DNA from: an uncultured Candidatus Saccharibacteria bacterium | GTDB taxonomy: Bacteria > Patescibacteriota > Minisyncoccia > Phycocordibacterales > UBA918 | Assembly: GCA_964626635.1 (NCBI GenBank) | Contig: CAZVFY010000003.1 | Span: 7,449-71,448, forward strand | DNA length: 64,000 nucleotides | Direction of reading: 5' to 3' | Shown here: positions 1 through 45,489 of the stretch, piece after piece | Position numbering within the stretch: the stretch's first letter is position 1 | Layout: every line of letters begins with the position of its first letter | Made by a program: the position numbers and the translations under genes | Notes under the pieces: generated by a model | The model's database searches: none | What the model was told of the DNA's origin: nothing | Seen by the model: only the letters and a program-made list of their open reading frames with translations

Positions 1-2
1 TG

Positions 3-146
3 GTTAATGCCCCAGCAGTTCCAGTCGCTATGGCCCATGTATGTCCAAAGTGCGGAAGTGAACTTACCAAGCGTAAGGGTAAATATGGTCTGTTTCTCGG
101 TTGTACTACGTACCCAGATTGTGACTATACAGAGAAACTTACCTAA
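3..146 (+). CDS. 3' end of a gene truncated by the window start. It encodes a topoisomerase-type C4 zinc ribbon (CPKCGSELTKRKGKYGLFLGCTTYPDCDYTEKLT).
   Basis: Frame-3 translation gives Cys-x2-Cys ... Cys-x4/5-Cys spacing, as in the C-terminal Zn ribbons of Topo I/III and of primase-like proteins. Stop at 144-146. No start codon in the window. Confidence 0.45.
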   Translation, partial: VNAPAVPVAMAHVCPKCGSELTKRKGKYGLFLGCTTYPDCDYTEKLT

Positions 147-1618
147 GTTCGTAGCTTACTCAACTCATCAGTAAACATCTCTAATCCCTCATTCTGTTTC
201 GGAATGAGGTTTTGTATTGTAATACTTGGGTCAGGTAAGAAGGTTTGTATTGGATATTTAATGTTTCCCTTACTATAGATAATCTCCTGCACGTGCTCAT
301 CGGTGTTCCGTAGGTAGAAATTTAGAGTGTTGATGGAGTCTGAAATTTCAGCAAGGTGTTGTAACACTTTCTCACTTAAATCCTCTCCAATAATTTCTGA
401 CATTCTCTCAGCAATAGCCTTGAAAGCTAGTAGATGACTATAGCTCTCAAATACTGACGATTCATGGACTAGAAAAGCTGGATAACTGTACATCATTAAG
501 TCAGTAATTTGATTTTGATAATCATCCACAAATGGTAGTTGTATATTTGATTGCACAAGACTTTCTCCAGTTATAAACGTCTTGTTGAGACACGCTTCAA
601 AAAACTTAGTCGGACATTCTTTAAGTACTAGGACACCACTAGAAATATATTGCTGTAGCAGATTTACTGTTTTATCTTTAGCCTTTAACCAAAGTCGCAT
701 TATTTTATCGTGTCTGATTTCGGTTTCGCCTTCGAAAGTCAGATGCCCCTCGCTGTTACACAGCGGTGTATATTCATTAAAAAATAGACCTTCACGTATG
801 GTGTCCCGAACAATACCCTCAAGCTTGTATTTCAGATCAGGTAGCTTAGCCAGTTCAGCATGAAGCTCGTCTTCAGTTTTGAATAAAATACTGTTTCGAC
901 TAGCTAATCGTTTCCCGAAGCTAAGTAAAGGATAGCCAGCAAAGTGAGTTTTAAAGACAACCTCTTTAACGCTTATTTTTACTACACTAAAATTAGCCTC
1001 TTGCCCCCAAGGGATTGAGTCGATAACTATCTTGGTAAGAAGGTCTACTTCTTTTTCAGAGAGTGACTGCTTACTAGTAAGGATACGGGCTAGTTGCTCC
1101 TCAGCTAAAAAGTATGAGTGATCTGATGTTACAGAAGGATCGAGTAGTAATATATCCTGCTGAAGTTTTTTAGGTAATGAATAGAATGTATACAGATGCA
1201 CCAGTCTGTCATATTCAAAGCCAGAGTGCTGTAAAAAGAAGTTGCGAAACTCTTTGGTATGATCATCGGGAATTACTCGACTAAGAAAGTGCTCATGTTG
1301 CTTTGGACTATCACTTTTATAGTAAAACATTTGAGCAATCTGCTCCAAGCGAGCAATAGATAACTGCGACACCAAGTATGAGGTCTGCATATCTATTTCG
1401 AGGCGGCCGAACATGTTCCAAACATCTAGATATTTATTGTACTGCTCAGCTTCTCTATAATCACGAGGTTTCCAACTCGTTGTCAGGGCTACAATATCAG
1501 CTTCAGTAACAAGACCCTTCCCAGTCTTTCGCTCATGAGCTTCATTTCGTATCACTAACAAAACTCGCTCCCGAGGGGATAGATTTCCTTTAGCAAGTAA
1601 TTTAGTAATGTCTTTCAT
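143..1618 (-). CDS. Hypothetical 491-aa protein at the distal end of the methyltransferase operon
   Basis: Long intact ORF in an AT-rich segment, tightly packed with downstream small ORFs on the same strand. No motif recognised with confidence; a weak PD-(D/E)xK-like FEGETEIRHDK stretch only. Confidence 0.5.
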   Translation of the reverse strand: MKDITKLLAKGNLSPRERVLLVIRNEAHERKTGKGLVTEADIVALTTSWKPRDYREAEQYNKYLDVWNMFGRLEIDMQTSYLVSQLSIARLEQIAQMFYYKSDSPKQHEHFLSRVIPDDHTKEFRNFFLQHSGFEYDRLVHLYTFYSLPKKLQQDILLLDPSVTSDHSYFLAEEQLARILTSKQSLSEKEVDLLTKIVIDSIPWGQEANFSVVKISVKEVVFKTHFAGYPLLSFGKRLASRNSILFKTEDELHAELAKLPDLKYKLEGIVRDTIREGLFFNEYTPLCNSEGHLTFEGETEIRHDKIMRLWLKAKDKTVNLLQQYISSGVLVLKECPTKFFEACLNKTFITGESLVQSNIQLPFVDDYQNQITDLMMYSYPAFLVHESSVFESYSHLLAFKAIAERMSEIIGEDLSEKVLQHLAEISDSINTLNFYLRNTDEHVQEIIYSKGNIKYPIQTFLPDPSITIQNLIPKQNEGLEMFTDELSKLRT

Positions 1619-1620
1619 AG

Positions 1621-1827
1621 TTACTTTCTTTGAGTAAGCATTTGTTCCAGTACATCGATACGCTGTTTGAGTTCCATGTTAGTAATGTTTTTAGACAAGG
1701 CTAACGCTATTCGAGATATGACCTGAGCCCGCTTAGGTGAAATCTTTCGAGCGGCTACTTGAAGCAGAGCATCGGAGAGGATTTCATTAACTTCAGCTAA
1801 GTCTAGTGTTTTCTTTATTTCTTTCAT
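1621..1827 (-). CDS. Hypothetical 68-aa protein
   Basis: ORF separated by 3 nt from neighbours on the same strand, inside the operon. Confidence 0.3.
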   Translation of the reverse strand: MKEIKKTLDLAEVNEILSDALLQVAARKISPKRAQVISRIALALSKNITNMELKQRIDVLEQMLTQRK

Positions 1828-1830
1828 AAG

Positions 1831-2217
1831 CTAAAAGTTTTCGATTATTTCAAACCAAGTTTTTACCTCTTTTGATTTACCGTACTTGGTCGCATTTTTA
1901 TACAAGGCCAACACTACGTTTGGTGTCAATTTTCTGGCCCATGTATAGGTATGTTCAAGTAAGCCCTCGTCTTCGATCCGTTTATTCCAGTCAGTGAGTG
2001 TGCCAAGGTCTTTGACGTTGTAGTGTGAAGCAAAGTCTTTTTGGGTCTTTATCTGCAATAACTCAATGGTGATGTCGTCATCAATACCCATCTTTCTAAG
2101 TACAGCGTCAGGTTGACCTCGCAGGAATGTCGGCAGTGATTTCCACGTCACATACGCCGCAAAGTCCTGTTTGCGATATACACCAGTATTTCTTTTTTCA
2201 TTAGACTGTACGCTCAT
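1831..2217 (-). CDS. Hypothetical 128-aa protein, possibly a phage small-terminase-like DNA-binding protein
   Basis: Sits immediately downstream of the two DNA methyltransferases, a position typical of phage packaging modules. No diagnostic motif. Confidence 0.35.
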   Translation of the reverse strand: MSVQSNEKRNTGVYRKQDFAAYVTWKSLPTFLRGQPDAVLRKMGIDDDITIELLQIKTQKDFASHYNVKDLGTLTDWNKRIEDEGLLEHTYTWARKLTPNVVLALYKNATKYGKSKEVKTWFEIIENF

Positions 2218-2974
2218 ACTTTGTGATCAATACTCGCTTCTGCTTTGTTAGTGCCTCTAGTCTTTTTAGACATATCTCTACATACTCAGAGTCTTGTTCA
2301 ATTCCGATACAGATACGACCGAGTTGAGCACAAGCAACAGCGGTACTGCCACTTCCTAGAAAACCGTCATACACCACATCACCAATACTGGTGACGTTTT
2401 GTATCAGCTTACGTAATAGTCCAATTGGCTTTTGGGTCGGGTGGAGTTTTGACTTCTGTGGTCGAGGATGGAAGATGGCGCTACTCATCTGAGCTTTCAC
2501 TCGTTTATGTTTCTTATACCAACCATAAGCAATCAGCTCCTGTTGGGGAAGGTAATCCATACGACCCATTACCGATTGGTTCTTGATCCATATCAGCATC
2601 TGGCTAAAGTGTAGCCCTGCGGTATGCATACCTGTGCGAAGAGCTAGAAACATCGTGTCGCAATTGAAGATATGGAAGGTGTTATATGAGTTCAAATGCG
2701 GTTGGATTGCTTCAATCCATGACTGAGTAAACCGAGCGTACTCATATTCGCTCTGTATGTGATCACCCTTAATCGCTTTAGCGTTTTTCTTGCCAAGTTC
2801 AGCTACTCCTACTTTGTTCTCAACGTACGCCACTCCATAAGGCGGATCGGTCACAACTGATTGAATCTTTTTGGTACCAATGACCATCGCTACAAAATCT
2901 TTGTTAAGTGAGTCTCCACAAGCAACTATATGACTACCAACTGAGTATATTTCTCCTGCTGTTACAGTTTTCAT
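2201..2974 (-). CDS. Beta-class N6-adenine/N4-cytosine DNA methyltransferase
   Basis: Motif IV VVTDPPYGV occurs before motif I FLGSGSTAVACAQLGRICIGIE (beta-class order). 257 aa. Confidence 0.8.
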   Translation of the reverse strand: MKTVTAGEIYSVGSHIVACGDSLNKDFVAMVIGTKKIQSVVTDPPYGVAYVENKVGVAELGKKNAKAIKGDHIQSEYEYARFTQSWIEAIQPHLNSYNTFHIFNCDTMFLALRTGMHTAGLHFSQMLIWIKNQSVMGRMDYLPQQELIAYGWYKKHKRVKAQMSSAIFHPRPQKSKLHPTQKPIGLLRKLIQNVTSIGDVVYDGFLGSGSTAVACAQLGRICIGIEQDSEYVEICLKRLEALTKQKRVLITKYERTV

Positions 2975-4254
2975 ATTCGCTTAGCTGTTAGCTTGGTAAA
3001 TTTTTCCCATCTATCAATGATGATGCTGGCGAATACTGGATCTTGTTCTACTCCAAACCAGATACGGCGTAATTGCTCGCAGTCAATTAGGTCGCTACCA
3101 CTACCACCAAAGCCATAGAAGACGACGTGACCTGGAGCAGTGCATCGTCTGAGTGGCTTTTCGTTTAGACTGACTGGCTTTTGAGTTGGATGAAGATAGC
3201 TCTGCACATCGTCTCGCTTCACAATCCAGAGGTCGATCATATCTAAGAGCTCGTTGTGGAGCTGGTTGCCAGTAGTGACTTCTTGATTAAGGATTTCGTT
3301 TACGTTCTTGAGATTATTGTTTAGAAAGGCTTTACCTGTCGTGCCGTAGATTGCGGGCTCATGTACTCGGTTAAACGCAACCTTCGGCGTCATGTTCTGA
3401 TTATTCTTTACCCAATAGCAGATACGCCTGAAGAGTATCTTGCGTTGTTTATACAGTGCTTGAATTGCTCCCACGTACTTAGCGTCACACCAGTACAGAT
3501 AGTGAGCATCGGCATGAGCTATTACTTTAGCCGTACTGATACTTGCTTCAATAAACGCGTAGTACTCAGCATCACTCATCGAGTCTTTCTTGCTAGAGTA
3601 CTGACCCCCGTATTCCTTAGTGTTACTAATTCCTTTGTTATATGAAAGCCCAATGTTATAGGGCATATCTTGAAAGATGAAGTGGGCTTTTGTTTCTCCC
3701 ATAAACGTTGATACCAGTTCTTTATCAGTAGAGTCTCCTACGAGTAATCGGTGCTCTCCTAATTGCCACACTTCGCCAACCTTTGCTCGGGGTTCGTTCA
3801 TCTCTTCAATTGCTTTGTCGACATCGTATTCATCTTCGGCTAATTCAACATCATCGAAGAAGTTCTGTAGTTCGTCATCCTCGAATCCAACATCAAGTAG
3901 AACAGATAGGTCGAAATTCTTTAGGAGCTCGTCATCCCAAGAGCCAGTATTTTTGTTGAGTCTAAGATTCAGCTCACGCTCTTCTTCTAGTGATAGTTCC
4001 CGAGAAGGGATCATGCATTCGACTGTCTTGTATCCTAAGTCAGCGTAGATTTTTATTCTCTGCTCGCCCCCGATGATTACATCAGCCCGTGAATCAATAT
4101 TGAGAACTACTGGCACAACCGCACCGAATGTCTCAATCGATTTCTGCAGGTCTTGTTTTTGGTTACCACTAACTTTACGTGGGTTGTATCCGTTAGGTGT
4201 AAGGTCTTGCACCTTACGAGTGGTGGATGACCACGTTATCTTTTTTGTTTTCAT
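2971..4254 (-). CDS. ParB-like nuclease domain fused to a DNA methyltransferase
   Basis: N-terminal ParB/Srx-like block (VVPVVLNIDSRADVIIGGEQRI). Motif IV-like FQDMPYNIG and C-terminal motif I FYGFGGSGSDLIDCEQLRRIWFGVEQD. ATGA overlap with the downstream methyltransferase. Confidence 0.8.
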   Translation of the reverse strand: MKTKKITWSSTTRKVQDLTPNGYNPRKVSGNQKQDLQKSIETFGAVVPVVLNIDSRADVIIGGEQRIKIYADLGYKTVECMIPSRELSLEEERELNLRLNKNTGSWDDELLKNFDLSVLLDVGFEDDELQNFFDDVELAEDEYDVDKAIEEMNEPRAKVGEVWQLGEHRLLVGDSTDKELVSTFMGETKAHFIFQDMPYNIGLSYNKGISNTKEYGGQYSSKKDSMSDAEYYAFIEASISTAKVIAHADAHYLYWCDAKYVGAIQALYKQRKILFRRICYWVKNNQNMTPKVAFNRVHEPAIYGTTGKAFLNNNLKNVNEILNQEVTTGNQLHNELLDMIDLWIVKRDDVQSYLHPTQKPVSLNEKPLRRCTAPGHVVFYGFGGSGSDLIDCEQLRRIWFGVEQDPVFASIIIDRWEKFTKLTAKRI

Positions 4255-4407
4255 AAGACTTATATTTAGGCACGTTGTTATACGTGTTAAGTCTCATGGT
4301 GGCACCTAAAAATAAACCTCCAAAATGGAGGAAATTGGAGGAAACTTTAGAAAAAGTAGAAGGTGTCTTGTGGTATTTAAGCTTATCCACAGCCATTTTC
4401 CTCCACA

Positions 4408-5553
4408 CTACTCCAATGAGTATAAATTGTTGAATCTGATACTCGTACGAGAAATATTGAAGATTGGCTGATTGTCATTTGGGTGCGAATTTATGATTTC
4501 ATGTTTCTTTAGTAGTTGCTCAAAACTTGTGTTGTTTCCAATAAGTTGAGTGCGATATTTTTCAGGATCATTTTCTACTCCGTCTGGTAGGAGTTTGATG
4601 AATTCATTTATATTTAATTCAATAACACCCTTTGGCATATACCGAATAACATTCTTAAACAGTTGTATGTACTGGTAGTCATCACCCTTGTTTGTTGTTT
4701 TGTATAAAAGTTTACTGTTTTGAAAATATATATGGTCCTGTTTAATTTCGAACAGCTTTGCTTGCTGTATTTCAGAGAGAGCAAAGACAATGCTGTTATG
4801 TAGACGACTTAAGTCTTGTGATATCCCTGCTTGGGGGTAGGCGTTTGTTGCACTAAGGGTGGCCTGTTTAATTTTATTTATATATGTGACACGAGCTATT
4901 GGTTTCTGCATCATTTCTACAAATTCACTCAATGTGATTTTAGTGCCATCATTAAAATTCAACATTTGATGATAAAGCTTCACTCCTCGCATTAATGCAC
5001 CAGATACAGACAAAGCATCCTGATCATGAAATGTTCTGTGAAGTCCTAAAAAGTCAGCTCGCTTTTCAAACGCAATTAGATTATCACTCCTCATATCTTT
5101 AGCAGGATTAAAAGTCTCGTTGAGAAATGACCTTGCTTCATCTTCATATCCTAATCTCTGCAATTCCTTCACTGCATCAAGTAATTCAAGTTCATTTGAG
5201 CCAAGCGGATGTTCATTTGAACCATGGTGGTTATGGGTCGCAAACGTCCGAAGACAATTTATCCGATCAGCAAGTAGAGCATTACTTTTTAAATCATTCT
5301 TTTCAACTATAGCTTCAAGCATTTCAACTGCCTTACCCGCATTCTGAACAATCTCATCGTATTTATTTTGAAGTACTTTGAGATCATTTTCTCTGGCTAC
5401 TACTGCTGGTACTAAATGTTCAATCAAAGTAAATCCATCAGTAACTAAAAAACTAAAATAGTCAGCAAAGGCAGTAAGGAAAGTGTTTGTGGAGTGACTG
5501 TTTTGCTGTGTGGATTCATACAGCTTTTGCTCCTTATCTACCATGCTTTTCAT
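4408..5553 (-). CDS. Hypothetical 381-aa protein with a possible HEPN-like Rx4-6H motif (RTFATH)
   Basis: Intact ORF upstream of the methyltransferase pair and co-oriented with it. No confident domain. Confidence 0.45.
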   Translation of the reverse strand: MKSMVDKEQKLYESTQQNSHSTNTFLTAFADYFSFLVTDGFTLIEHLVPAVVARENDLKVLQNKYDEIVQNAGKAVEMLEAIVEKNDLKSNALLADRINCLRTFATHNHHGSNEHPLGSNELELLDAVKELQRLGYEDEARSFLNETFNPAKDMRSDNLIAFEKRADFLGLHRTFHDQDALSVSGALMRGVKLYHQMLNFNDGTKITLSEFVEMMQKPIARVTYINKIKQATLSATNAYPQAGISQDLSRLHNSIVFALSEIQQAKLFEIKQDHIYFQNSKLLYKTTNKGDDYQYIQLFKNVIRYMPKGVIELNINEFIKLLPDGVENDPEKYRTQLIGNNTSFEQLLKKHEIINSHPNDNQPIFNISRTSIRFNNLYSLE

Positions 5554-5716
5554 AGCTAAATAGTATCACTTTGAGCATATTTATACAGAAAACCAAATCG
5601 CCCAAGAATTGGCATTGTTTGGCATTTGGGTCTTGAGTATGGGAACGGGGTTGATTTTTCCATATTTTATGACATTGTACTAATGGAAATAGAAACTTTG
5701 ACTCGAGGTGAACAAG

Positions 5717-5899
5717 ATGAACGTCTTTAAACTCTTCTTCAATTGGCTTGGCGAAAAGTTTGGCGCCTGGCTTCAAAAAGTCGGCGAGGAAAATCGCCCT
5801 ATAGAGAGCGACTACGATGCTCCGTTCGACGATGAACCGATGTTCAGCCGTTCAGATCTTATGCCTGACGAGCGAGGCGATTTTGACAATCGGTTCTGA
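5717..5899 (+). CDS. Small hypothetical protein (60 aa, acidic C-terminus)
   Basis: GAGGTGA RBS 5 nt upstream of ATG at 5717. Followed by a TTGACA-containing promoter-like region. Confidence 0.3.
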   Translation: MNVFKLFFNWLGEKFGAWLQKVGEENRPIESDYDAPFDDEPMFSRSDLMPDERGDFDNRF

Positions 5900-6011
5900 A
5901 ATGTGTTGACAAAGTACATTTTTTTGTGTTGAATACAAGAACTCGCAGGCTTACGAGAAGCTGTGAGCGTTCCTAGGAAACTGAAACCCTTCAACCTCAT
6001 GAGGTGAAACA

Positions 6012-6500
6012 ATGCAAGCGAAAAGCAACCTTGCGGCCCTTTCGGTCCGCGCGAAACTCGCCAATGATCCGGCGCTCTTGGATCGGATGATGGCCTACGA
6101 CCACCCGGCGCTCCGTGAGCGCATGCAGGTCAAGTACGGTTGGAGTCCGGAGAAGACCGACGAGCTGTTCGGCGAGATGAAGAAGTTCATGTATCTCTGC
6201 GCGACCAACGACGGTGCCATGGCACCGCCCGAGGACATCGACGAGATCTGGCACAACTTCATCCTGTTCACCGGCGACTATGCCGACTACTGTCAGGACA
6301 CTGTCGGCATGTTCCTTCATCACCAGCCGCTCACGGTCGCCCAGCGCGCCCAAAGCGACGGCTCGATGATCACGAACACGCTGGACGCTGCCCGTCGTGC
6401 CTTCGGCGACGATGTGCCCGAGAAGTACTGGTCCTTCCAGAAGATCCCGGGCAGCTGTGGGCCGGGCACCTGTGGTGCTTCGACCAACTGCCAAGGCTGA
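6012..6500 (+). CDS. Hypothetical 162-aa protein in a ~62% GC island. It has a Cys/Gly-rich C-terminal tail (PGSCGPGTCGASTNCQG).
   Basis: AGGTGA RBS upstream. Composition differs sharply from the flanks. Conserved-looking EIWHNFILFTGDYADYC block. The overlapping antisense ORFs are GC-rich artefacts. Confidence 0.5.
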   Translation: MQAKSNLAALSVRAKLANDPALLDRMMAYDHPALRERMQVKYGWSPEKTDELFGEMKKFMYLCATNDGAMAPPEDIDEIWHNFILFTGDYADYCQDTVGMFLHHQPLTVAQRAQSDGSMITNTLDAARRAFGDDVPEKYWSFQKIPGSCGPGTCGASTNCQG

Positions 6501-6581
6501 CGATCGGCCGACGGCAATCATGAATCGCGCGTCATCCTTTCGAGGGTGGCGCGCATTTTTTTCACAACCAGAGGAATCATT

Positions 6582-7085
6582 ATGGATAACTGGAGAATTG
6601 TTCCTGCTACCCCAGAAGATGCACCGAGGTTGTCGCGTCTTATGGATAGATTGGAGTCAGAAAGTGACTTCATGATGTATGAAGTTCAAGAAGTTCCAAC
6701 TAGGGAGCTGCTTCGCCGACGCCTTGAAGCAGGAGTTAAAACTACGAAAGAGACCTTTCTGCTTGCAATTGCAAACGAAGATATCTATGGATACGCACTA
6801 GTATTCCGTGGAAATTTTGCTCGCAATTGTGGTGTAGGGACTCTCGCACTGGGTGTTGCAAGGGCTGCACAAGGGTATGGCATCGGATCAGCGCTCATCG
6901 CAGAATCGATTGCTTGGGCTAAACATCAGGGTCTGTACCGACTCCAACTACAAGTTCAAACTAGCAATACGGGGGCGTTTCGTCTTTACCAGAAGTTTGG
7001 TTTCCAAAACGAAGGCACTCTATACCGTTGCGCACTTGTGAATGGTAAGTACGTCGACAAGTACCAGATGGCCCTTCTGTTGTAA
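6582..7085 (+). CDS. GNAT family N-acetyltransferase
   Basis: GAGGA RBS 6 nt before ATG 6582. GNAT motif A region QGYGIGSALIAESIAWAKHQGLYRLQLQV and FRLYQKFGF. Confidence 0.75.
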   Translation: MDNWRIVPATPEDAPRLSRLMDRLESESDFMMYEVQEVPTRELLRRRLEAGVKTTKETFLLAIANEDIYGYALVFRGNFARNCGVGTLALGVARAAQGYGIGSALIAESIAWAKHQGLYRLQLQVQTSNTGAFRLYQKFGFQNEGTLYRCALVNGKYVDKYQMALLL

Positions 7086-7158
7086 CTGGAACCCTGTTTT
7101 ACGAATGTATTTCAGGGTTTCTTTTTTTCTTAAGCTTCTATACAATAACTTTACTATT

Positions 7159-7755: not shown

Positions 7756-7875
7756 GTCTTCTGACCTACATTTAGTTATATTTTGACCCCGACCCACTTA
7801 CCTAAATTGATCTAGCCCAAAGACCCTAAAATGCCCTTACAAGGCCTTGCCTGTGGGGTACTTAACCCACATAGC

Positions 7876-7939
7876 CCGCAACAAAACCAGCAAGCAATGA
7901 CTTGCTGATTTTTGGTTAGGGAGTGGGCTGGTCGAACTT
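7876..7939 (+). repeat. Family-A intergenic repeat, copy 1. Imperfect hairpin ..CAACAAAACCAGCAAG/CTTGCTGATTTTTGGTTAG.. followed by GGGAGTGGGCTGGTCGAACTT.
   Basis: The right arm and 3' tail are near-identical to copies at 9242..9304 and 11373..11435. Confidence 0.7.
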
Positions 7940-8020
7940 ACTATGATTTTTTATAAAAAAGTGTATGTTGTTTAATGGCTGCACATTACATTTCAACGTC
8001 CACATACAGGAGGAACTACC

Positions 8021-9136
8021 ATGGACGCAGTTCAAGCAACGAACGGAGCGACCACGGTCACTCCTACGAATACGCCGACGTGGTGGCATCAAGACGAAGC
8101 ATCAGGGCGCATTGACCCTGCTCTACTTGCTCCCGATCCCGAACAACCCCGAAAGCACATGGATGAGGCTGCACTTGAGGAACTTACCGAAAGTGTTGCC
8201 TCTGTTGGAGTGCGTGAACCGATCACCGTTACCCCGTGCGACAAAGCTCCCTGGTCAACTACTGATAACCAACATCAAGGATTGCCGTTCTTGGTGGTTA
8301 GCGGGCATCGGCGCACACGTGCAGCGATCAACGCACAGCTCGACTCCGTTCCCATACGTGTGAGGATCTATACCAGTGCTCAAGAGCACGAACTTGATCG
8401 TTCGCTCCTGAACAAAAATCGAGCTGATCTGACTGAACTCGAAGAGGGGTATGAAATCGTCCGACTCAAGGAGAAGGGTTTGACCCTCGGTGAGTTGGGT
8501 AAGGCGTTTGGATGTTCGGTTACACACCTGTATAACCGTATGCACCTGACCGCGCTTCACCCAAGTCTACAGGAGATGCTCGATCCTGCTCTACCACCCA
8601 AACGGCGTTTACCGACAACAGTTGGTGCAGCGCTGGGTAGCGTAAAGGTTCCGACAGTAGAAGAGCTGGAGGGATTGCACGCCTCATTTGGTGATATGAC
8701 CACTCAATCAGTTGAAGAAGTTGAGTATCTAGATGACACAGAACGTCGTCTCCACGTTCAACTTCTTTTCCACGATGTGATTAATGCCCGAAGTTTAAGT
8801 TCCGTCCGAGCAGTTGCTCTTGTGAAAGAGCACGCACTCAAGTTGAGTGCTTCGGGTACAGGTAGACACCCACGAGTCAAACGTCAAGAGCCAGCGCGGC
8901 GTCGAGAACTGTTTGATACATGGTTGTCTAGTCTTTCAGACTCGCCCATCATTGATTGGCGACCTGAAGAATGGCGTCGTGTCTTCGAGTACGTTTCTTA
9001 TGAGGACTTGGAAGAGATTATCGGCAATGTTCAAGACGCAACTGGTTTGCTTATTCAAATCAAAAAGCGTCTTGAGTCGATCAAATCAACCAAGCGACCG
9101 ACTTCTGAAGCGGTGAAGCGGGCGCTTGATAGTTAG
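8021..9136 (+). CDS. ParB/Srx N-terminal domain protein with a probable HTH
   Basis: AGGAGG RBS. ParB box-like VVSGHRRTRAA. GC content is higher than in neighbouring genes. Confidence 0.6.
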   Translation: MDAVQATNGATTVTPTNTPTWWHQDEASGRIDPALLAPDPEQPRKHMDEAALEELTESVASVGVREPITVTPCDKAPWSTTDNQHQGLPFLVVSGHRRTRAAINAQLDSVPIRVRIYTSAQEHELDRSLLNKNRADLTELEEGYEIVRLKEKGLTLGELGKAFGCSVTHLYNRMHLTALHPSLQEMLDPALPPKRRLPTTVGAALGSVKVPTVEELEGLHASFGDMTTQSVEEVEYLDDTERRLHVQLLFHDVINARSLSSVRAVALVKEHALKLSASGTGRHPRVKRQEPARRRELFDTWLSSLSDSPIIDWRPEEWRRVFEYVSYEDLEEIIGNVQDATGLLIQIKKRLESIKSTKRPTSEAVKRALDS

Positions 9137-9138: not shown

Positions 9139-9190
9139 GCCCCACCACAGAGAGCACCCCGCTTTCAGTGGTGGGGTGTTTTCTTTTATT
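9139..9190 (+). terminator. Intrinsic terminator (GCCCCACCAC ... GTGGTGGGGTG + T-tract)
   Basis: GC-rich inverted repeat followed by TTTTCTTTTATTT. Confidence 0.6.
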
Positions 9191-9244
9191 TAAATAACCA
9201 CTTCCTCCATCAAAGCGGTTCTAACGTCATCTAGGTACCTCCGC
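9186..9244 (+). repeat. Family-B conserved element, copy 1 (TTATTTAAATAACCACTTCCTCCATCAAAGCGGTTCTAACGTCATCTAGGTACCTCCGC)
   Basis: About 80% identical copies at 10161..10219 and 12114..12173, each immediately after a GC-rich terminator. Confidence 0.7.
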
Positions 9245-9304
9245 AACGAAAATCAGCAAGCTATAGCTTGCTGATTTTTGGTTAGGGAGTGAGATACTCG
9301 AACT
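9242..9304 (+). repeat. Family-A repeat, copy 2 (CAACGAAAATCAGCAAGC TATA GCTTGCTGATTTTTGGTTAGGGAGTGAGATACTCGAACTT)
   Basis: 18-20 bp imperfect hairpin with a bulge. Abuts B copy 1. Confidence 0.7.
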
Positions 9305-9386
9305 TTTCTTGTATATCGTGCTTTTATGTGGCATTGTTGCTGTCGAACGGACACCCTGTCCACCCAGTACATAAAGGATCATTCAC

Positions 9387-9818
9387 ATGCAACCAACCTT
9401 TTATCAGGTTCACGCACCACAGCACATGATGCACTGCTTTGCCATTCGTCGCGCTGTGTTCATTGAAGAACAAGGCGTCGACGAAGAGCTAGAGATCGAC
9501 GGCGAAGACCCAAACTGTGTCCACTTCCTCGGGGAGTTGAACGGACAACCGATCGCCACCCTGCGAATCAAAACTATCGGACCGACAGTGAAGATCCAAC
9601 GAGTGGCTGTTCTCAAAGACTACCGAGATGGATACGGCGTTGGTCGCGGCATCATGGAAGCGGCTCTGAACTGGGCACGCGATAGCGGCTACGAACAAGC
9701 TATCCTCGGCGCACAAGTCACAGTCATCGGCTTCTACGAGAAACTCGGCTTCGTTACCTACGGCGACCAGTATGAGGAAGCTTACATCATGCACCAAGAC
9801 ATGAGTTTGGAACTCTGA
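9387..9818 (+). CDS. ElaA-like GNAT acetyltransferase
   Basis: RRAVFIEEQGVDEELEIDGEDPNCVHFLG and LGAQVTVIGFYEKLGFVTYGDQYEEAYIMH closely mirror the E. coli ElaA motifs. Confidence 0.7.
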   Translation: MQPTFYQVHAPQHMMHCFAIRRAVFIEEQGVDEELEIDGEDPNCVHFLGELNGQPIATLRIKTIGPTVKIQRVAVLKDYRDGYGVGRGIMEAALNWARDSGYEQAILGAQVTVIGFYEKLGFVTYGDQYEEAYIMHQDMSLEL

Positions 9819-10129
9819 TGAGCAAAGCAACTATTCGTATTTCGCTCAAAACGATTGCGATGCGTTTCCCTGCTGGCAGTATCGAACGCGTGTATCTACA
9901 TGGTACGTGGCAGATGGAGCGTGGGCGCAACCCGTCTATGCTCTATGGAAATCACCACTCGGCACGTGTGGCGTATGCTGCTGCCAAAGCCATGCTCGGA
10001 TCATACTTTGATGAGATCAGGCGACAGCATTATGCTCGTCAAGATTTCTTCTGGAGTGATCAGATGATCGTCGATGTGACGAACCGAGTTCCCGTCCGTG
10101 AGCTACGACTCATGGACAAGTATCGCTAG
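9818..10129 (+). CDS. Hypothetical 103-aa protein, translationally coupled to the GNAT (ATGA overlap)
   Basis: Start overlaps the GNAT stop. Followed by a terminator. Confidence 0.4.
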   Translation: MSKATIRISLKTIAMRFPAGSIERVYLHGTWQMERGRNPSMLYGNHHSARVAYAAAKAMLGSYFDEIRRQHYARQDFFWSDQMIVDVTNRVPVRELRLMDKYR

Positions 10130-10160
10130 GCCGCCTTCCCTACGGGGTGGGCGGTTTTCA
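10129..10160 (+). terminator. Intrinsic terminator (GCCGCCTTCCC tac GGGGTGGGCGG + TTTTCATTT)
   Basis: GC-rich stem plus T-tract. Confidence 0.5.
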
Positions 10161-10219
10161 TTTATTTAATCACCACTTCCTCCAACAGCGCGGTTCTAAT
10201 GTTATCCAGTTCCCTCCGC
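10161..10219 (+). repeat. Family-B element, copy 2
   Basis: TTTATTTAATCACCACTTCCTCCAACAGCGCGGTTCTAATGTTATCCAGTTCCCTCCGC. Confidence 0.65.
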
Positions 10220-10261
10220 ATCATCGTGCTAGCACGAGACACCTCGTGATAACATGAATTT

Positions 10262-10654
10262 ATGAAATACACACTAGTCTTCCTAGGCATTCTGTGTTTG
10301 GTGGCAGTAGCTTCATTTGTTAATGGTGGTGTATACAATCTACATGCTGGAAATGTTGCTTATCCAGAAGGATTTAAACCTGTTTACAAAATATGTAATG
10401 GATTGACGATTGTTGTAGGAGATCCTATTGCACACCACTACGACTTACCCGTTAATGGTATTTGTTTTGGATCGATAGTCGATAGACCAGAACTCACATC
10501 CGAACAGAAGAAAAAGATTAATGGTCCCCAGGTTTTTTACATGATATCTTCAAACGAGTTGGATGACCATGATTATAGATGTAAAACAGATCCCCTCTAT
10601 GATCCTGCAGATCCGTGTGAGTATAGTTTTGAAGGTGTTCAAGTCGATATTTAG
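10262..10654 (+). CDS. Small secreted Cys-containing protein (130 aa, N-terminal signal peptide)
   Basis: MKYTLVFLGILCLVAVASFVNG signal. AT-rich. Confidence 0.45.
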   Translation: MKYTLVFLGILCLVAVASFVNGGVYNLHAGNVAYPEGFKPVYKICNGLTIVVGDPIAHHYDLPVNGICFGSIVDRPELTSEQKKKINGPQVFYMISSNELDDHDYRCKTDPLYDPADPCEYSFEGVQVDI

Positions 10655-10894
10655 CGCATTTGAGATAATCAACATAAAAGTTTTTTGTTGTATCTTACAG
10701 AAAATATAGAGCTCGAGACAGTATCGAATTGATTTTAAAAATAGTACTGAATCAGACAAGCCAAGCTTGGTATCACACAGTTCTAACTCGAGACAGCCCG
10801 CCAAGTCCAGCTAGCACGACATATCACGTGCAAAGCAATTGGATAATAAAAAGAAAAGCTTTAGATTACAGAGAATGTGTACGAAACCTGTTTA

Positions 10895-11245
10895 TTAGAA
10901 GTATCCCCCGGCTATAAATATCAAGGAGGTTACTACAATTAAAATGCTTACTATCAGTGTTAACTTTTCGATGATTGACCAGTTATTTTTTCGCAAAGTA
11001 GAAATTATAAAAGCCAGAGATAGAAAAAACGAAAAACCGAATGTGAGAATAAGATATGGCATGGCAAAAAACCAAGCAATACTCTCAATCTGAAGCACCC
11101 AAGCGAAGTAATACCAAGTACCAAAAGGAACTCCCAGTTGTAGTAGCAGAATCAACCAGGCGGGTAATTTTGATTTCACAATACATATTATACACATTTG
11201 CTTACGAATTTTGGTTTGCGAGACAGCGTTAAGCAGTGAATTCAA
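10895..11245 (-). CDS. Small integral membrane protein (116 aa, 3-4 TM)
   Basis: Hydrophobic segments throughout. Confidence 0.4.
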   Translation of the reverse strand: MNSLLNAVSQTKIRKQMCIICIVKSKLPAWLILLLQLGVPFGTWYYFAWVLQIESIAWFFAMPYLILTFGFSFFLSLAFIISTLRKNNWSIIEKLTLIVSILIVVTSLIFIAGGYF

Positions 11246-11372
11246 AAAACATTAATAAATGTTTTTTGTTCACTTGAAAACTTGCGCTCGAGACGCTACG
11301 ATAGACTACTTGGGAATTAAGAGATTCGGTCAAGCAGGGCTTGGCTGCCCACGGTTCTAGCCCGAGACGGCC

Positions 11373-11435
11373 AGCAACGAAAATCAGCAAGTAATAGCTT
11401 GCTGATTTTGATTAAGGAGTGGGACGCTCGAACTT
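11373..11435 (+). repeat. Family-A repeat, copy 3 (CAACGAAAATCAGCAAG TAATA GCTTGCTGATTTTGATTAAGGAGTGGGACGCTCGAACTT)
   Basis: Same architecture as copies 1 and 2. Confidence 0.7.
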
Positions 11436-11516
11436 CGCCTTGCACCAACAGTATATTTCCTGCATAGTGCTTTTGGTACCTGTACCACTTTGAAACCTAA
11501 GTAGGAGACTGTCACA

Positions 11517-12080
11517 ATGGAGACGGCAAAAGCTGTCGGCGACGGTAAGCTGACTGATGACGAACTTGGAACAATGACTCGGCGTCTGATGGAAATAGTT
11601 CGCCGAATCAACGAGGGGTCCCTTGATAAGCGAAAAACGCTTACAGCGTTCCAGATGCTGATTGAGGGCAAGGCTGGACAGATGACTGAGCCGTGTCCGC
11701 GAAAGCACCGCTCAGAAAGTCGTCCATTCAAGATGCTCCCGATAGCTGAGCGTCGCAAATCAACCGCTCCTTTGAGAATGCGTACAGAGCAGTATCTCAA
11801 GCGACTGTACTACCACTACAAGTTGTTTCTCTTCACAGATCAATACTGGGGAGAAAAACGTCTGAATGCAGAAGATATTTTTGCCTTGATGTGGGAAGCA
11901 GAAAATATTCCTGACCAGTGCATAAACCACGGTTGGACACCGGTGCAAAGTATTCTCGGTGATTTTTATGCTAGCGAGCATGATCGAGCGATCGTCGCAT
12001 CGACGCTGCAGTGGCTCGGGACAAACTCCGGCAAGGAGTACCTTCGTAGAATGATTGCGACCGCTGACATCGACGTGTGA
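11517..12080 (+). CDS. Hypothetical 187-aa protein
   Basis: GGAG RBS. Flanked by A copy 3 and terminator + B copy 3. Confidence 0.45.
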   Translation: METAKAVGDGKLTDDELGTMTRRLMEIVRRINEGSLDKRKTLTAFQMLIEGKAGQMTEPCPRKHRSESRPFKMLPIAERRKSTAPLRMRTEQYLKRLYYHYKLFLFTDQYWGEKRLNAEDIFALMWEAENIPDQCINHGWTPVQSILGDFYASEHDRAIVASTLQWLGTNSGKEYLRRMIATADIDV

Positions 12081-12084
12081 CACC

Positions 12085-12120
12085 GGGGCGCCCGCTTAGT
12101 GTGGGCGCCCCTTCTTATTT
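12085..12120 (+). terminator. Intrinsic terminator (GGGGCGCCC ... GGGCGCCCC + TTCTTATTT)
   Basis: Perfect 9-bp GC stem. Confidence 0.6.
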
Positions 12121-12173
12121 AAATGCTTACTTCCTCTACCAAAGCGGTTCTAACGTCGTCTAGGTACCTCCGC
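12114..12173 (+). repeat. Family-B element, copy 3
   Basis: TTATTTAAATGCTTACTTCCTCTACCAAAGCGGTTCTAACGTCGTCTAGGTACCTCCGC. Confidence 0.65.
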
Positions 12174-12437
12174 GAGCTAGAAAACAAACATGCAAGTGTT
12201 TGTTTTTGTTTGCGAGCGCGAGGGAGAGGGATGAGAAAAAAGCGAAGTCTATCGCCCAGAGCGGAGCGAGGACGGTACGAGCGTCGGGGTCGCGTCGCAC
12301 AGTATTTGAGGTAACAAAAATACTGCTGCAAAGGCGGCCGAATCCCTCTCCCTCCGCAAAACGATATTCGTCCGCGTAAACGGACTTCTGTTTTGCAGAC
12401 TGCACGATCCAGGTTCACCATTTGCTATTATATAGCC

Positions 12438-35065: not shown

Positions 35066-36160
35066 TTAGCGGTTCATCGGCATTACCAAATAACGCACCG
35101 TAGCGCTCCCCTTTGGACTAATCACTAGCGGCCGACCGATCCCGGCAAACCGTAACTCGAGCGTGTCACCCACAAAGTGCTGCAGTGACTCCACCAAATA
35201 CTGCTGGTTGAAATTAAGCGATAACTCTTCCCCGTCAACGGCCGCATTAATCGTATCAGTGGTCTGCCCCACGTCGGCGTTCTGCGCCGACACCGTCAGT
35301 GACTGTTCACCAATTACCAAGGCTACTTGACGGAATTTATTTAAAAAGATATTGGTTTTTTTAGTTGATTGCTGGAAATCGGCCTTGAGGATATCTACAG
35401 TAGTGACGAATTCTTTAGGGATGATCTGCTCGTAGTCTGGAAATGTTCCAGTCACTAAGCGACTGGCAATGTAAGTCCCGTCAGACCAGCGCAACGCGCA
35501 TTGACTGTCGCTAATGCCTAATTTTGGATCATCGGATTTTAGGTCACACACCCGAGCCAATTCTAAGGCATTCTTTTGCGGCACCATAAGCGATGTCTCG
35601 AACTGCAACCCTGGCTGTGACACAGTCCGCTCCATTAACCGAAACGAGTCTGTCGCCACAAAAGTAAGAGTATCACTTTGTGACTGCTGGATGAACACAC
35701 TACCTAACTCCGGCTTGATTGATGTCTGAGAGGCCGCAAAGGCCACGCTCTTGATCCCTTCGGCGAACAACCTCCCTTTAATTTGTAGCGGTACGTCAGT
35801 GATTTGCTGTAGATTAGGGAACTCATCAGCGGCAAATAATTTGATCGAGGTATTGGAGGTGGTTGTCTCGATTTGCAATGTGTCCCCTTCAGTCCGCAGA
35901 GTAATGTCTGACCCTGACACAAACTGAATACTTTGCAGGAACGTAATAGCGGGGATCGCGATCACCCCCTCACTGACGACCGTACCCGAGAGCGGCACCA
36001 TCACCGATAGTTCCAGGTTCGTTGCCTGAATTGTGATATCACTACCTTTTGCTTCGAGCAGTACACACTGTAAAACAGGGAGGGTTGGATGCTTGCTGGT
36101 GATTCTCGAGACCAGCTCAAGCGCATTCGTTAATTCACTGTGGAGAAGGGTTAGTTCCAT
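35066..36160 (-). CDS. dnaN: DNA polymerase III beta sliding clamp
   Basis: 364 aa, three-domain clamp pattern, immediately downstream of dnaA. Confidence 0.85.
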   Translation of the reverse strand: MELTLLHSELTNALELVSRITSKHPTLPVLQCVLLEAKGSDITIQATNLELSVMVPLSGTVVSEGVIAIPAITFLQSIQFVSGSDITLRTEGDTLQIETTTSNTSIKLFAADEFPNLQQITDVPLQIKGRLFAEGIKSVAFAASQTSIKPELGSVFIQQSQSDTLTFVATDSFRLMERTVSQPGLQFETSLMVPQKNALELARVCDLKSDDPKLGISDSQCALRWSDGTYIASRLVTGTFPDYEQIIPKEFVTTVDILKADFQQSTKKTNIFLNKFRQVALVIGEQSLTVSAQNADVGQTTDTINAAVDGEELSLNFNQQYLVESLQHFVGDTLELRFAGIGRPLVISPKGSATVRYLVMPMNR

Positions 36161-36450
36161 ATCTTTCTTTATACCTTATTTCTTCTTTATTATTAGTGCT
36201 GGGGATAGGGGTATAACTTGATTGTGTGCAAAATAGTAAAGCTATTCTCGTCCCCAATACCCACCGTTTAGGGTGTATTGTTCGGAACCAGGCGCGAACT
36301 ACATGGGGGTAAGTATACCGTATTAGTGGTCAGCTGGGTATAAACAGGACTTATTCGACCAGCTTCCCCACCTCGGCTGTAGCACTACACACACGGTAGT
36401 GCACAGCCTCGCCCAGTGTCTATCCACTTGTACATTGGCAGTTGTTGTAT

Positions 36451-36492
36451 ACATAAAAAAATCCCGCTAATGCGGCGGGATTTTTTATTTAA
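36451..36492. terminator. Hairpin with flanking A/T runs at the dnaA 3' end (ATCCCGC taatgcg GCGGGAT)
   Basis: On the - strand the stem is followed by a U-run. Lies between dnaA and dnaN. Confidence 0.5.
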
Positions 36493-37873: not shown

Positions 37874-38104
37874 AGATAGTAAAAGTATACGGCTAATGTA
37901 AAAAGATTCCAACGCTTGGCAGACACGCATAGAACGCGTTTGTTTTAATACCCCAAACTGTGGATTAGTAATGCAACTGGGGATAAATTGGGGATAAGTA
38001 GTGAACAAATTGATTTATGTATGTACTTGTTGCTTTAAACGAGCACAACAGCTTGCAAAGCCAGGATATTTTGATATGGTTCTAGGCACACACAATAATT
38101 TCCT
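37874..38104. promoter_or_regulatory. oriC candidate between dnaA and rpmH: DnaA boxes TGTGGATTA (37959), TGGGGATAA (37978), TGGGGATAA (37989) next to an AT-rich segment
   Basis: Three close matches to the TTATCCACA reverse complement within 40 bp. More boxes (TGGGGATAG, TCTATCCAC) lie in the dnaA-dnaN spacer at 36161..36484. Confidence 0.55.
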
Positions 38105-41491: not shown

Positions 41492-41493
41492 AT

Positions 41494-42507: not shown

Positions 42508-42564
42508 ATAGTATTACTAATAGTAACAGAGCGTTCTATCTGGATTTGGGCTCGCTGTGCGTAT

Positions 42565-44352: not shown

Positions 44353-44375
44353 ATTGATCTAGTATACACCCCGCA

Positions 44376-45011
44376 CTACGATTGTGTTGCCGGTGCCGTA
44401 CCGGTGGTATCAGCTGGGTTATATAAATGGTAGAAGAGCTCTACTAACTCGTCGCGCCCGAGCGGCATGGTGCGGACCCCGACACTAGCCAGTCCCTGAG
44501 TCACGAGTGACGCGCGTTGTTCCAGTTGCAGTCGGTGTTCTTCAAACTGTTGGTCATCGGTATTCACAGCTGTCTTGGAGCCGCTGAATATGTTGGTGAA
44601 TTTATTGGCGACGTTTAGTTTAGTCGGTGAGTACGGCACTACAATAAAAAAGCTTTTACTCATAACATCAGTATCATTAGTAAAGCTTCTAATAAATTCG
44701 ATGTATTCCGCGAGCTGCACGCGCATCAAATCGTTATTTTGTTTACCTTGTAGATTATCTAATACTTCGAGATACGGCTCGATGTTTAACTTGCGGGACT
44801 GGACACAGATCTGTAAAGAGAAATCAAGCGTGTTCAAGAAATTTTGAAACTGCAGCAAAATTGCGCGCTGCTCATCGTAGGATTTGAGCGCAAAGTTAAT
44901 TGAAGACGCCAAGATCACCAGACACATCTCGCCATTTTTCTTAATTATCACCCCGTCTCGAATGTTTTTGATCGGGACAAAGTTCTGCGTACTGGTTGCG
45001 GTGGTGGCCAT
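44376..45011 (-). CDS. Hypothetical cytoplasmic protein of the T4SS-like operon (211 aa)
   Basis: Intact ORF. No motif. Confidence 0.45.
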   Translation of the reverse strand: MATTATSTQNFVPIKNIRDGVIIKKNGEMCLVILASSINFALKSYDEQRAILLQFQNFLNTLDFSLQICVQSRKLNIEPYLEVLDNLQGKQNNDLMRVQLAEYIEFIRSFTNDTDVMSKSFFIVVPYSPTKLNVANKFTNIFSGSKTAVNTDDQQFEEHRLQLEQRASLVTQGLASVGVRTMPLGRDELVELFYHLYNPADTTGTAPATQS

Positions 45012-45022
45012 AGTGCTGCGGA

Positions 45023-45460: not shown

Positions 45461-45489
45461 CCACGCGTGCAGCTGTGGCAGGGTAATTA

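Follow-up and report, generated by a model that had tools for sequence, protein, structure and literature searches.

Seams of tRNA-like and inverted tRNA-Ser ends in a tandem cassette array of a Patescibacterial island

The composite repeat investigated here, termed B+A, occupies positions 9186-9304 of a 64,000-nucleotide stretch (hereafter the window; positions 7,449 to 71,448 of contig CAZVFY010000003.1, assembly GCA_964626635.1) from an uncultured Candidatus Saccharibacteria bacterium, where it separates the gene of a ParB-like protein from that of a GNAT acetyltransferase. An earlier note, prepared from the letters alone, had likened the composite to an integron attC site. We analyzed it together with the array of small genes in which it is embedded, and with the tRNA-Ser gene and the serine recombinase that are located to the left of the window.

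Cassettes, ends and hairpins of the array

Alignment of all intergenic regions between 7.7 and 12.4 kb places B+A as one of seven equivalent junctions (J0-J6), each consisting, in order, of the terminator hairpin of the upstream gene, a right-end element, the seam, and a left-end element that opens with a hairpin. The units in between measure 0.2-1.4 kb and form a tandem array, which represents the distal part of an island of ~19.8 kb. Two types of right ends are present, B (...ACTTCCTCC..GCGGTTCTAAC..CCTCCGCA) and S (...CAAGC..GCTTGG..GGTTCTA(A/G)C..GCC(C/A)GC(C)A), as well as two types of left ends, A (palindrome followed by GGTTAGGGAGTGGG....TCGAACTT) and C (..GCTAGCACGA..). A left ends go with B right ends in three cassettes and an empty one, and C left ends with S right ends in two cassettes. 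End types are thus paired by cassette and not by junction, so that the seams display all four combinations: B|A (J1, J5), B|C (J2), S|C (J3) and S|A (J0, J4). The C...S units have a G+C content of ~40% and the A...B units of 45-52%. Cut at the seam, all units obtain matched ends and behave as discrete cassettes of two families, and the seam is accordingly positioned directly after ...GC(C)A, 5' of the hairpin.

Proceeding from left to right, with all ends, cargo genes and flanks on the plus strand, the left half of J0 is S0 (7853-7880), the tRNA-like right end (GTGGGGTACTTAACCCACATAGCCCGCA) of the upstream serine-recombinase element, in which a T-arm-like segment is spaced by a 7-nt acceptor and G from the terminal CA. 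A1 (7881-7939), which the earlier note regarded as standing alone in the manner of an attI site, is therefore preceded by another tRNA-like end. It constitutes the left end of cassette 1 and is composed of a terminator-type hairpin (7883-7912) and an inverted partial tRNA-Ser 3' end, GGTTAGGGAGTGGGCTGGTCGAACTT. The cargo of this cassette is a ParB_N/helix-turn-helix protein of 371 aa (8021-9136; Pfam PF02195, E 3e-12), after which a terminator scan reports a G+C-rich hairpin (9149-9184), and B1 (9186-9245) forms the right end. A2 (9246-9305), with a hairpin at 9249-9278 and an inverted partial tRNA-Ser 3' end at 9279-9305, opens cassette 2, which carries the GNAT acetyltransferase (9387-9818; Pfam PF00583, E 5e-13) and an overlapping 103-aa open reading frame (ORF) without family match (9818-10129), and is closed by B2 (10149-10220; GGTTCTAAT ... 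TCCCTCCGCA). A C-type rather than an A-type left end comes next. Cassette 3 (10221-10803; C...S type, ~40% G+C, repeats D12 and D19) consists of the C1 palindrome TCGTGCTAGCACGA, a secreted 130-aa ORF (10262-10654) and the tRNA-like S1 end ...AGTTCTAACTCGAGACAGCCCGCCA, whereas cassette 4 (10804-11376; likewise C...S) holds small ORFs only, between C2 (GCTAGCACGA...) and a terminator at 11244-11268 with the tRNA-like S2 end ...CACGGTTCTAGCCCGAGACGGCCAGCA. Cassette 5 (11377-12174) is again of A...B type, with A3 at 11377-11436, a 187-aa ORF at 11517-12080, a terminator at 12085-12111 and B3 at 12114-12174. The last unit, cassette X (12175-12358), is a gene-less A4...B4: a hairpin (12181-12206), an inverted partial tRNA-Ser (12220-12232, GAGGGAGAGGGAT), a spacer of ~105 nt, and a direct partial tRNA-Ser (12339-12357, CGAATCCCTCTCCCTCCGC). 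Finally, 12359-12437 represents the presumed original chromosomal flank of the tRNA, with a terminator-like hairpin of its own (12370-12385), and is followed by a pterin-4a-carbinolamine dehydratase gene.

The individual copies of B (repeat family D1: 9174-9245, 10149-10220 and 12103-12174) and A (family D2: 7883-7939, 9249-9305 and 11380-11436) were recovered in a repeat search of the window, and nhmmer profiles return the three A and three B copies with E values of 1e-24 to 1e-31. No further A or B copies are detected elsewhere in the 64 kb by the profiles, as all fall within 7.8-12.4 kb. The repeats are hence far beyond chance, and the sequence features first pointed out are real. Indeed, GGTTCTAAC is located at 9217-9225 and GGTTAGGG at 9280-9287, 54 nt downstream, and between them lies a perfect 13-bp stem with a 4-nt loop (AAAATCAGCAAGC TATA GCTTGCTGATTTT, 9249-9278), which AAC/GTT prolongs over a 1x2 internal loop to an imperfect palindrome of 18-20 bp. 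The third A copy carries GATTAAGG (11410-11417). The GTTRRR-like sequence, the imperfect palindrome and the deviating third A copy thus all stand as the earlier note described them. In B1, the T-loop-like GGTTCTAAC is followed by the acceptor-like end CCTCCGCA (9238-9245), and the 17-nt end of B1 is 82% identical to the true partial tRNA at 12342-12358 (family D5). An exact pattern for B, ACTTCCTCNANCANNGCGGTTCTAA, yielded 0 matches in genome, viral and metagenome collections, the pattern being too specific and the metagenome collection lacking the source samples; no phage DNA similarity was recovered for 7-13 kb.

All three A-type cassettes with genes have 81 nt between the last base of the A arm (CGAACTT) and the start codon (7940-8020, 9306-9386 and 11436-11516), despite weak mutual similarity of the leaders. 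The leaders of cassettes 2 and 3 in this series (L2 and L3) share promoter-like hexamers, TTG.A.-17-CAT.GT; A2 is followed by TTGTAT-17-CATTGT, with the ATG 81 nt past CGAACTT.

A stable hairpin follows every seam (RNA -10 to -28 kcal/mol, z -1.8 to -7.3), in most cases with an A-tract before it and a T-tract after it. The A2 hairpin folds on either strand (DNA -20 kcal/mol, z -4.4; RNA -22 kcal/mol, z -6.3), and the A1 hairpin is classed as terminator-like in a simple terminator scan. From site to site the hairpin changes in sequence but not in structure, and two hairpin copies in a related locus (L016, see below) differ by a compensatory exchange of A-T for G-C. The simplest role is that of a bidirectional intrinsic terminator, which at any landing site of the unit would close off the tRNA or the preceding cassette. 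Congruent with known intrinsic (rho-independent) bidirectional terminators, the central palindrome combines an A-tract, a 10-13 bp stem, a 4-6 nt loop and a T-tract, and it is placed directly 3' of a tRNA or tRNA-like end. Unlike these, the palindrome belongs here to a mobile-end module that is repeated, and a second terminator, rich in G+C, lies immediately upstream of it.

B can also be read on the minus strand (9190-9243, 10165-10218 and 12119-12172), as the final ~18-27 codons of a protein of the form ..L..VRT.L.E..* (RRYLDDVRTALMEEVVI*, RRELDNIRTALLEEVVIK and RRYLDDVRTALVEEVSI*), and two B-like copies in another locus (L019, 3106-3186 and 3987-4067) read ..QVRTSLIE(I/M)E..NFLKV.... The differences among the B copies are distributed 15 : 2 : 15 over codon positions 1 : 2 : 3 (P about 3e-4, or 1e-3 allowing three phases). 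No parent gene of these peptides was found among all ORFs of the window and the comparison loci. B may possibly be what remains of a gene that overlapped, at its 3' end, with an ancestral attachment site.

The tRNA-Ser gene and the serine recombinase

The sequence of the window is contained in the JGI contig Ga0450788_111448, and contigs of the same population from other samples reach further left than the window's own contig. One of these, L012, is collinear with the window (99.98% identical over 6.3 kb) and harbors an intact tRNA-Ser(TGA) gene ~7.4 kb left of the window start, with the 3' end ...GGGTTCGAATCCCTCTCCCTCCGCCA. The last 19 nt of this tRNA before CA recur at 12339-12357 with 19 of 19 positions identical, the top match in the window and above all shuffles (p <= 2e-4). 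The tRNA and the direct repeat of its 3' end hence bracket the ~19.8 kb island.

Further copies of the tRNA end are found at the seams. An inverted copy, GAGGGAGAGGGAT, is situated just past the A4 hairpin at 12220-12232, and the right arms of A1-A3, when reverse-complemented, align to the tRNA-Ser end (GTTCGA--ATCCCTCTCCCT versus GTTCGAGTATCTCACTCCCT; p 0.0006-0.018, with 0.002 for A1 and 0.0006 for A2). Accordingly, the R'-like arm GGTTAGGGAGTG..TCGAAC copies part of the tRNA-Ser 3' end in inverted orientation. The termini of B1-B3, (T)CCCTCCGC or ACCTCCGC, correspond to the acceptor strand, with TCCCTCCGC of B2 matching the tRNA-Ser acceptor end in 9 of 9 positions, and S0, S1 and S2 all show the correct spacing of T-arm and 7-nt acceptor, ending in G-CA or G-CCA. 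The Rfam tRNA model reports none of the internal tRNA-like ends, and Rfam as a whole, at gathering threshold and at E <= 10, reports nothing relevant at the junctions. Considering this resemblance, the R'' of the earlier note would be the T-loop-like motif of a tRNA-like cassette end, and its R' would correspond to the acceptor portion of a partial tRNA in inverted orientation.

Besides AbiEii, the tRNA-proximal element codes for a large serine recombinase of 440 aa, which has Resolvase, Recombinase and Zn_ribbon_recom domains and whose gene (L010, 16185-17507) is positioned ~4.6-5.9 kb left of window position 1 and 1.5 kb from the tRNA. More than 120 homologues are 80-99% identical, and belong to Patescibacteria (Giovannonibacteria, Minisyncoccia) wherever the source is named. 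The recombinase lies within one to two genes of a tRNA-Ser gene in five independent loci, namely this island, L054, L056/L057, L058/L059 and L060, although in L056/L057 the tRNA is represented by a partial, tRNA-like 3' end only. In the four further genomes, the recombinase homologue is followed by one or two variable, mostly defense-type genes (SduA, AAA_15, DUF4238 or an unannotated 367-aa gene) and then, on the opposite strand, by tRNA-Ser (GCT or TGA; partial in L056), while restriction-modification, Zorya-like or diversity-generating retroelement genes are found at the recombinase's other flank. Directly 3' of the ...CCGC(CA) tRNA end, all five loci share a conserved arm, A(T/G)A(G/C)AA(C/T)T(A/T)AGTATCGG(A/T)GTGAC. 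Judged by these sequences, the recombinase family is tied to tRNA-Ser termini, and the linkage together with the conserved arm indicates that it integrates at tRNA-Ser 3' ends. As reconstructed, attP would be 7853-7880 joined to ATAGAACTAAGTATCGGAGTGACC.... Inverted-repeat geometry of the kind expected for dyad sites of serine recombinases shows a recurrent spacer of 21-22 nt in three site types, which does not agree with where the seam falls in B-type ends and is taken neither for nor against such sites.

Comparison of two co-occurring strain variants, L010 and L012, reveals 99.99% identity up to ...CCGCCA, and divergence thereafter (L010 ~19016, L012 ~13702, about -7391 in window coordinates, which is only a few bases from where the window's own contig ends). 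The tRNA present in L012 is replaced in L010 by an extra element with an FtsK_gamma-domain gene and an S-type end, GGGGTACTTAACCCTAGTGGCCCGCCA. The 14-mer GGGGTACTTAACCC ends this extra element exactly at the tRNA-Ser junction, and recurs at 7855-7868 upstream of A1. The position of the divergence, exactly at the tRNA 3' end, indicates that insertion at the tRNA terminus is polymorphic in the population. A search for an empty site by RuvA synteny recovered none, and there is no close relative among GTDB species representatives.

As a separate observation, the tRNA-proximal element (1-5553 and ~7.4 kb leftward) has the content of a defense-type island, with AbiEii, an Eco57I-like restriction-modification enzyme, Mrr, two N6/N4 DNA methylases (one of which is a ParB_N fusion), and several proteins of 381-491 aa without Pfam match.

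The protein of cassette 5 provides a link to other genomes. Homologues of this 187-aa protein, 54-89% identical, occur in unrelated gene contexts on other Patescibacterial contigs, and the close homologues that were checked (64-80% identical) have B-like, tRNA-like flanks: the closer ones are followed by a terminator, by ..ATCAAAG.GGTTC(T/G)AAC...(A)GCCCGCA or CTCCGC, and then by a hairpin. In L016, the end of a real tRNA-Ser gene (...GGGTTCGAATCCCACATCCTCCGCA) is succeeded by AATGCC, a hairpin, an inverted partial tRNA (GAGGAGGTGGGATTCGAACC) and, ~100 nt further, a 19-nt direct repeat of the tRNA end; next come a 187-aa homologue that has a B-like end, and then AATGCC and hairpin for a second time. 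L014 exhibits two gene-less modules beside two tRNA-Ser(GGA) genes, with a homologue of the 187-aa gene nearby, and the A4...B4 unit of the window is of the same kind as these modules.

Several features of these relatives are reported for completeness. In the 187-aa family, conservation of the 5' leader (CATAGT...GGTAC....GTACC...GGAGACTGTCACAATGGAGACGG) reaches as far as the distant homologues (11440-11520 in the window; L014, 4825-4909; L016, 2002-2086; and upstream of the homologues in L020-L023). The C-terminal ~70 residues of the protein have relatives of 25-38% identity in viral contigs. Moreover, L014 contains two closely similar convergent RecQ genes, 1459-2961 (+) and 5629-7116 (-), around a 2.7 kb stretch in which two tRNA-Ser(GGA) genes of divergent orientation are accompanied by their gene-less tRNA-end modules and by the 187-aa homologue, an arrangement that looks like a large inverted duplication around a tRNA hotspot.

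Interpretation of the seam

The reading that we favor, with a probability of around 60%, is that 9186-9304 represents the seam of two integrase-less cassettes, in an array built by repeated site-specific insertion at the 3' end of tRNA-Ser(TGA). B, a tRNA-like 3' end in degenerate form, would close the upstream ParB cassette on the right, and A would be the left end of the downstream GNAT cassette, consisting of a terminator-type hairpin, an inverted partial tRNA-Ser 3' end and a promoter-like leader of fixed length. The hairpin may terminate the tRNA or the upstream cassette wherever a cassette lands. A circle bearing B|A (or S|C) would undergo recombination with the tRNA terminus or a seam already in place, newer insertions at the tRNA would push the older ones outward in a tycheposon-like fashion, and owing to the serial insertion a tRNA-like end would be retained at every seam. 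The composite at 9186-9304 would hence be an attR/attL-type hybrid with the appearance of an attP. This reading draws on the anatomy of the array, the direct and inverted repeats derived from the tRNA, the polymorphism at the tRNA terminus and the occurrence of the recombinase family at tRNA-Ser ends, as well as on the real tRNA-Ser genes of L014 and L016, which have the same hairpin and the same inverted and direct partial tRNA. We infer that the A...B cassettes were inserted by site-specific recombination.

A number of observations weigh against it. The conserved left arm with AGTATCGG is present at the tRNA junction of the island and absent at J0-J6, and thus from the A and C left ends, with only GGAGTG in common between this arm and the A arm; hence, the resident recombinase may not act on these cassettes, and no other recombinase was found among the window ORFs scanned. 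B1-B3 match the tRNA only over the last 7-9 nt and the T-loop-like motif (individual p 0.016-0.12), and the T-loop-like GGTTCTAA of the B ends is 5 nt further upstream than tRNA geometry dictates. The protein-coding-like substitution pattern of minus-strand B is unaccounted for by a role as att site. The cassette order is identical in all contigs that carry cassettes, so that mobility of the A/B cassettes is unobserved; neither a contig break within A3 (L009), probably an assembly effect of the near-perfect 30-nt palindrome, nor another within B1 (L002/L011, L006) gives evidence of rearrangement. Lastly, distant homologues of the 187-aa protein (35-57%) sit among core-like genes without tRNA-like flanks, from which it follows that this gene is not always in cassette form, and that a varied context alone is no proof of mobility.

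Turning to the integron, the composite could be an attC that folds as a bottom-strand hairpin within a cluster of attC sites lacking an integron-integrase (CALIN), with IntI encoded elsewhere. In agreement with such an origin, the cassettes are small, located on the same strand and of mosaic G+C, with two GNATs among them, a compact bottom-strand hairpin can be drawn (CTCC-GC-AAC-G-[13 bp]-TATA-[13 bp]-TG-GTT-AG-GGAG), and the R''-type core proposed in GGTTCTAAC is legitimate, as GTTCTAAC is the genuine R'' core of the gcuF attC. The complementarity of the cores, CTAAC/GTTAG, is likewise present, but extends over 5 nt only and is lost in B2 (CTAAT) and A3 (ATTAA). In known attC sites the AAC/GTT triplets are conserved, and R and L boxes occur together with a variable terminal structure of 20-100 nt (PMC4889954). 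Their cores are of the form RYYYAAC (R'') and GTTRRRY (R'), the fold also includes an unpaired central spacer and extrahelical bases, and cassettes are bounded inside R', at G|TTRRRY. Here, CCGCAAC...GTTAGGG is found in J0 and J1 only, hence in two of seven junctions; J4 has a degraded ATTAAGG, J2, J3, J5 and J6 have none, and the G-to-A change of A3 (ATT) is not compensated. The size and topology claimed for the hairpin are not those of attC, for it is a 47-51 nt bottom-strand structure with a perfect 13-bp stem, a 1x2 internal loop and a loop of 4 nt. As the earlier note itself recognized, the segment between R'' and hairpin is overlong, with GGTTCTAAC 23 unpaired nt from the stem, a distance that leaves no R box possible. 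In addition, at least 19 nt beyond GTTAGGG (AGTGGG....TCGAACTT) are conserved in all A copies, and the B and S types switch to the A and C types immediately 5' of the hairpin; the conservation past GTTAGGG goes with the downstream cassette, which places the seam 5' of the hairpin and not at G|TT within R', and the arms are explained by partial copies of tRNA-Ser.

No matching enzyme was found either: a tyrosine recombinase (Phage_integrase, PF00589) has no match in the 57 substantial, non-nested window ORFs scanned (of 95 ORFs of at least 110 aa, the remainder being mostly nested inside these), in line with the earlier statement that the window lacks intI. Nor is PF00589 present in the ~10 kb left of the window (three proteins scanned, other genes by precomputed Pfam), where the sole recombinase on record is the serine recombinase. 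A home-made attC covariance model, built from the arms of eight class-1 attCs out of ten extracted from plasmid integrons (located through their 5' conserved segment, which at least 5000 plasmids carry with 100% identity), gave scores of 30-47 bits for its own types and reported no junction at E <= 10 in window 1-40000; this is a weak negative, as the held-out real attCs of ereA2 and VIM-2 scored 14 and 11 bits, which renders the model underpowered. In summary of these tests, the identification of B+A as an integron attC was rejected on the grounds of cores that are not array-wide, a seam off R', the lack of IntI among the ORFs scanned and arms explained by tRNA-Ser copies, and a canonical integron array is highly improbable. 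What stands is the notion of a recombination-type junction between mobile-looking, same-strand cassettes of mosaic G+C, with a palindrome at each seam.

Other explanations account for part of the data. The repeats may be regulatory, with A as operator or bidirectional terminator and promoter of three operons, bound for instance by the ParB/KorB-like protein of cassette 1, and B as an element of the 3' untranslated region: a perfect 30-bp palindrome is found upstream of three transcription units, including the ParB-like gene, the ATG follows at an invariable 81 nt, promoter-like hexamers are present in L2 and L3, and the A hairpin is terminator-like. This would leave unexplained the tRNA-derived direct and inverted repeats, the cassette-wise pairing of ends, the gene-less A4...B4 and the same architecture at tRNA-Ser genes of other genomes, and we regard it as unlikely; terminator and promoter roles as such are compatible with insertion at the tRNA-Ser terminus, and are included in that reading. 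Alternatively, the seam may be a new kind of structure-dependent site, where direct and inverted tRNA-like ends pair across an extruded hairpin (cf. attC and the attP of CTX phage) and the paired duplex is cut by some recombinase, so that cassettes are excised or shuffled from any seam. Pairing of CTCC/GGAG and AAC/GTT indeed flanks the stem in J0 and J1, J5 has an outer stem (CCTCCGCG/CGCGAGGG) around a hairpin of unrelated sequence, the hairpin structure is maintained despite sequence change, as in the compensatory exchange of L016, and the tRNA end and inverted fragment of L016 form a near-palindrome of ~100 nt. Such a site is nonetheless improbable considering that C-type left ends of the same array lack the inverted tRNA arm, that there is no candidate enzyme, that no excision products have been observed, and that the hairpins resemble ordinary bidirectional terminators. 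Less plausible still are non-autonomous elements with cargo akin to miniature inverted-repeat transposable elements (MITEs), whose terminal inverted repeats would mimic the tRNA-Ser 3' end and whose transposase would act in trans. The right arm of A and the end of B are imperfect inverted repeats of each other, and gene-less versions of ~180-235 nt with the same ends exist in three genomes; against this, neither target-site duplications nor a transposase are found, the C...S cassettes are devoid of the inverted arm, and the insertions are confined to one tRNA-linked locus.

Beyond serial insertion at the tRNA-Ser terminus, the integron may have a functional, tRNA-anchored counterpart in Patescibacteria, in which short single-gene cassettes made of a 5' terminator hairpin and a tRNA-mimicking 3' end would be inserted serially at the tRNA-Ser terminus, and could be excised or reshuffled from any seam by a recombinase acting in trans, possibly the widespread, nearly invariant large serine recombinase or a reader of the folded palindrome. 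We consider this extension unlikely, if worth keeping in sight.

Modules bounded by att-type repeats and lacking a recombinase, in tandem with an element that has one, are known from the CIMEs (cis-mobilizable elements) and the accretion of Streptococcus ICESt elements, and from composite SCC (staphylococcal cassette chromosome) islands, which Ccr serine recombinases mobilize at the rlmH 3' end, the target being in each case the 3' end of a conserved gene. Here, the target differs in being a tRNA terminus, the cassettes are without the conserved arm of the resident recombinase, and mobilization in trans is only putative. The locus also resembles the tycheposon islands of Prochlorococcus, which arise by serial insertion at one tRNA, including tRNA-Ser(TGA), a minority using large serine recombinases, and where scattered full and partial tRNAs mark the seams and the cargo serves adaptation or defense (Hackl et al., bioRxiv 10.1101/2020.12.28.424599). 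Integration at a tRNA, displacement of older elements further into the island by newcomers, full or partial tRNAs at the seams and adaptive or defensive cargo are shared. In contrast, the host is here Patescibacterial, the recombinase is a large serine rather than a tyrosine enzyme, the distal units are single-gene cassettes of 0.2-1.4 kb without recombinase or replication genes, and many seams have a terminator hairpin followed by an inverted partial tRNA. With integron arrays (Cury et al. 2016, PMC4889954), the locus has in common the small same-strand cassettes with imperfect palindromes between them, chimeric seam sites, GNAT cargo and, in two copies, AAC...GTT triplets flanking the stem; it departs from them in that no IntI was found, the cores are not array-wide, the loop measures 4 nt instead of the 20-100 nt of a variable terminal structure, the seam falls 5' of the hairpin rather than inside R', and the arms derive from tRNA. 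In our view the locus works like a tRNA-anchored accretion island, the resemblance to integrons being superficial, and is unusual for its Patescibacterial host, its serine recombinase aimed at tRNA-Ser, its very small recombinase-less cassettes, and seams in which a terminator hairpin is flanked by convergent copies of a tRNA end.

Patescibacteria (bacteria of the candidate phyla radiation, CPR) have tiny genomes, and their mobile elements are poorly described. The island illustrates how they may gather accessory and defense genes, with tRNA-Ser as a landing pad for elements with large serine recombinases; the recombinase is 80-99% identical across many lineages, as compared to at most 58% for the host RuvA, encoded beside the island, the value of its best non-self homologue in the protein database. 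For surveys of integrons the locus represents a warning, as tandem partial-tRNA scars at terminator hairpins can mimic attC cores (AAC...GTT, GTTCTAAC) and arrays. If the small cassettes are indeed mobilizable, this would amount to integron-like gene capture with a different target and a different class of recombinase.

Observations elsewhere in the window

The chromosomal origin region with dnaN and dnaA is located ~23 kb from the array (35066-38008 and 39411-48525, including the neighboring cluster), beside a type IV secretion-like cluster whose products include a TrbC/VirB2-type pilin, a TraG-like ATPase and PrgI. Inside an 842-aa ORF (45997-48525), a 57-nt sequence is repeated in tandem at 48297-48407, its two copies being 89% identical. 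Finally, a G+C-rich palindrome, CCCCCGGCGCGCATGCGTGCCGGGGG, followed by a T-run, occurs at 54287-54319 and at 58650-58682, 4.4 kb apart and 94% identical, and is probably a shared terminator.

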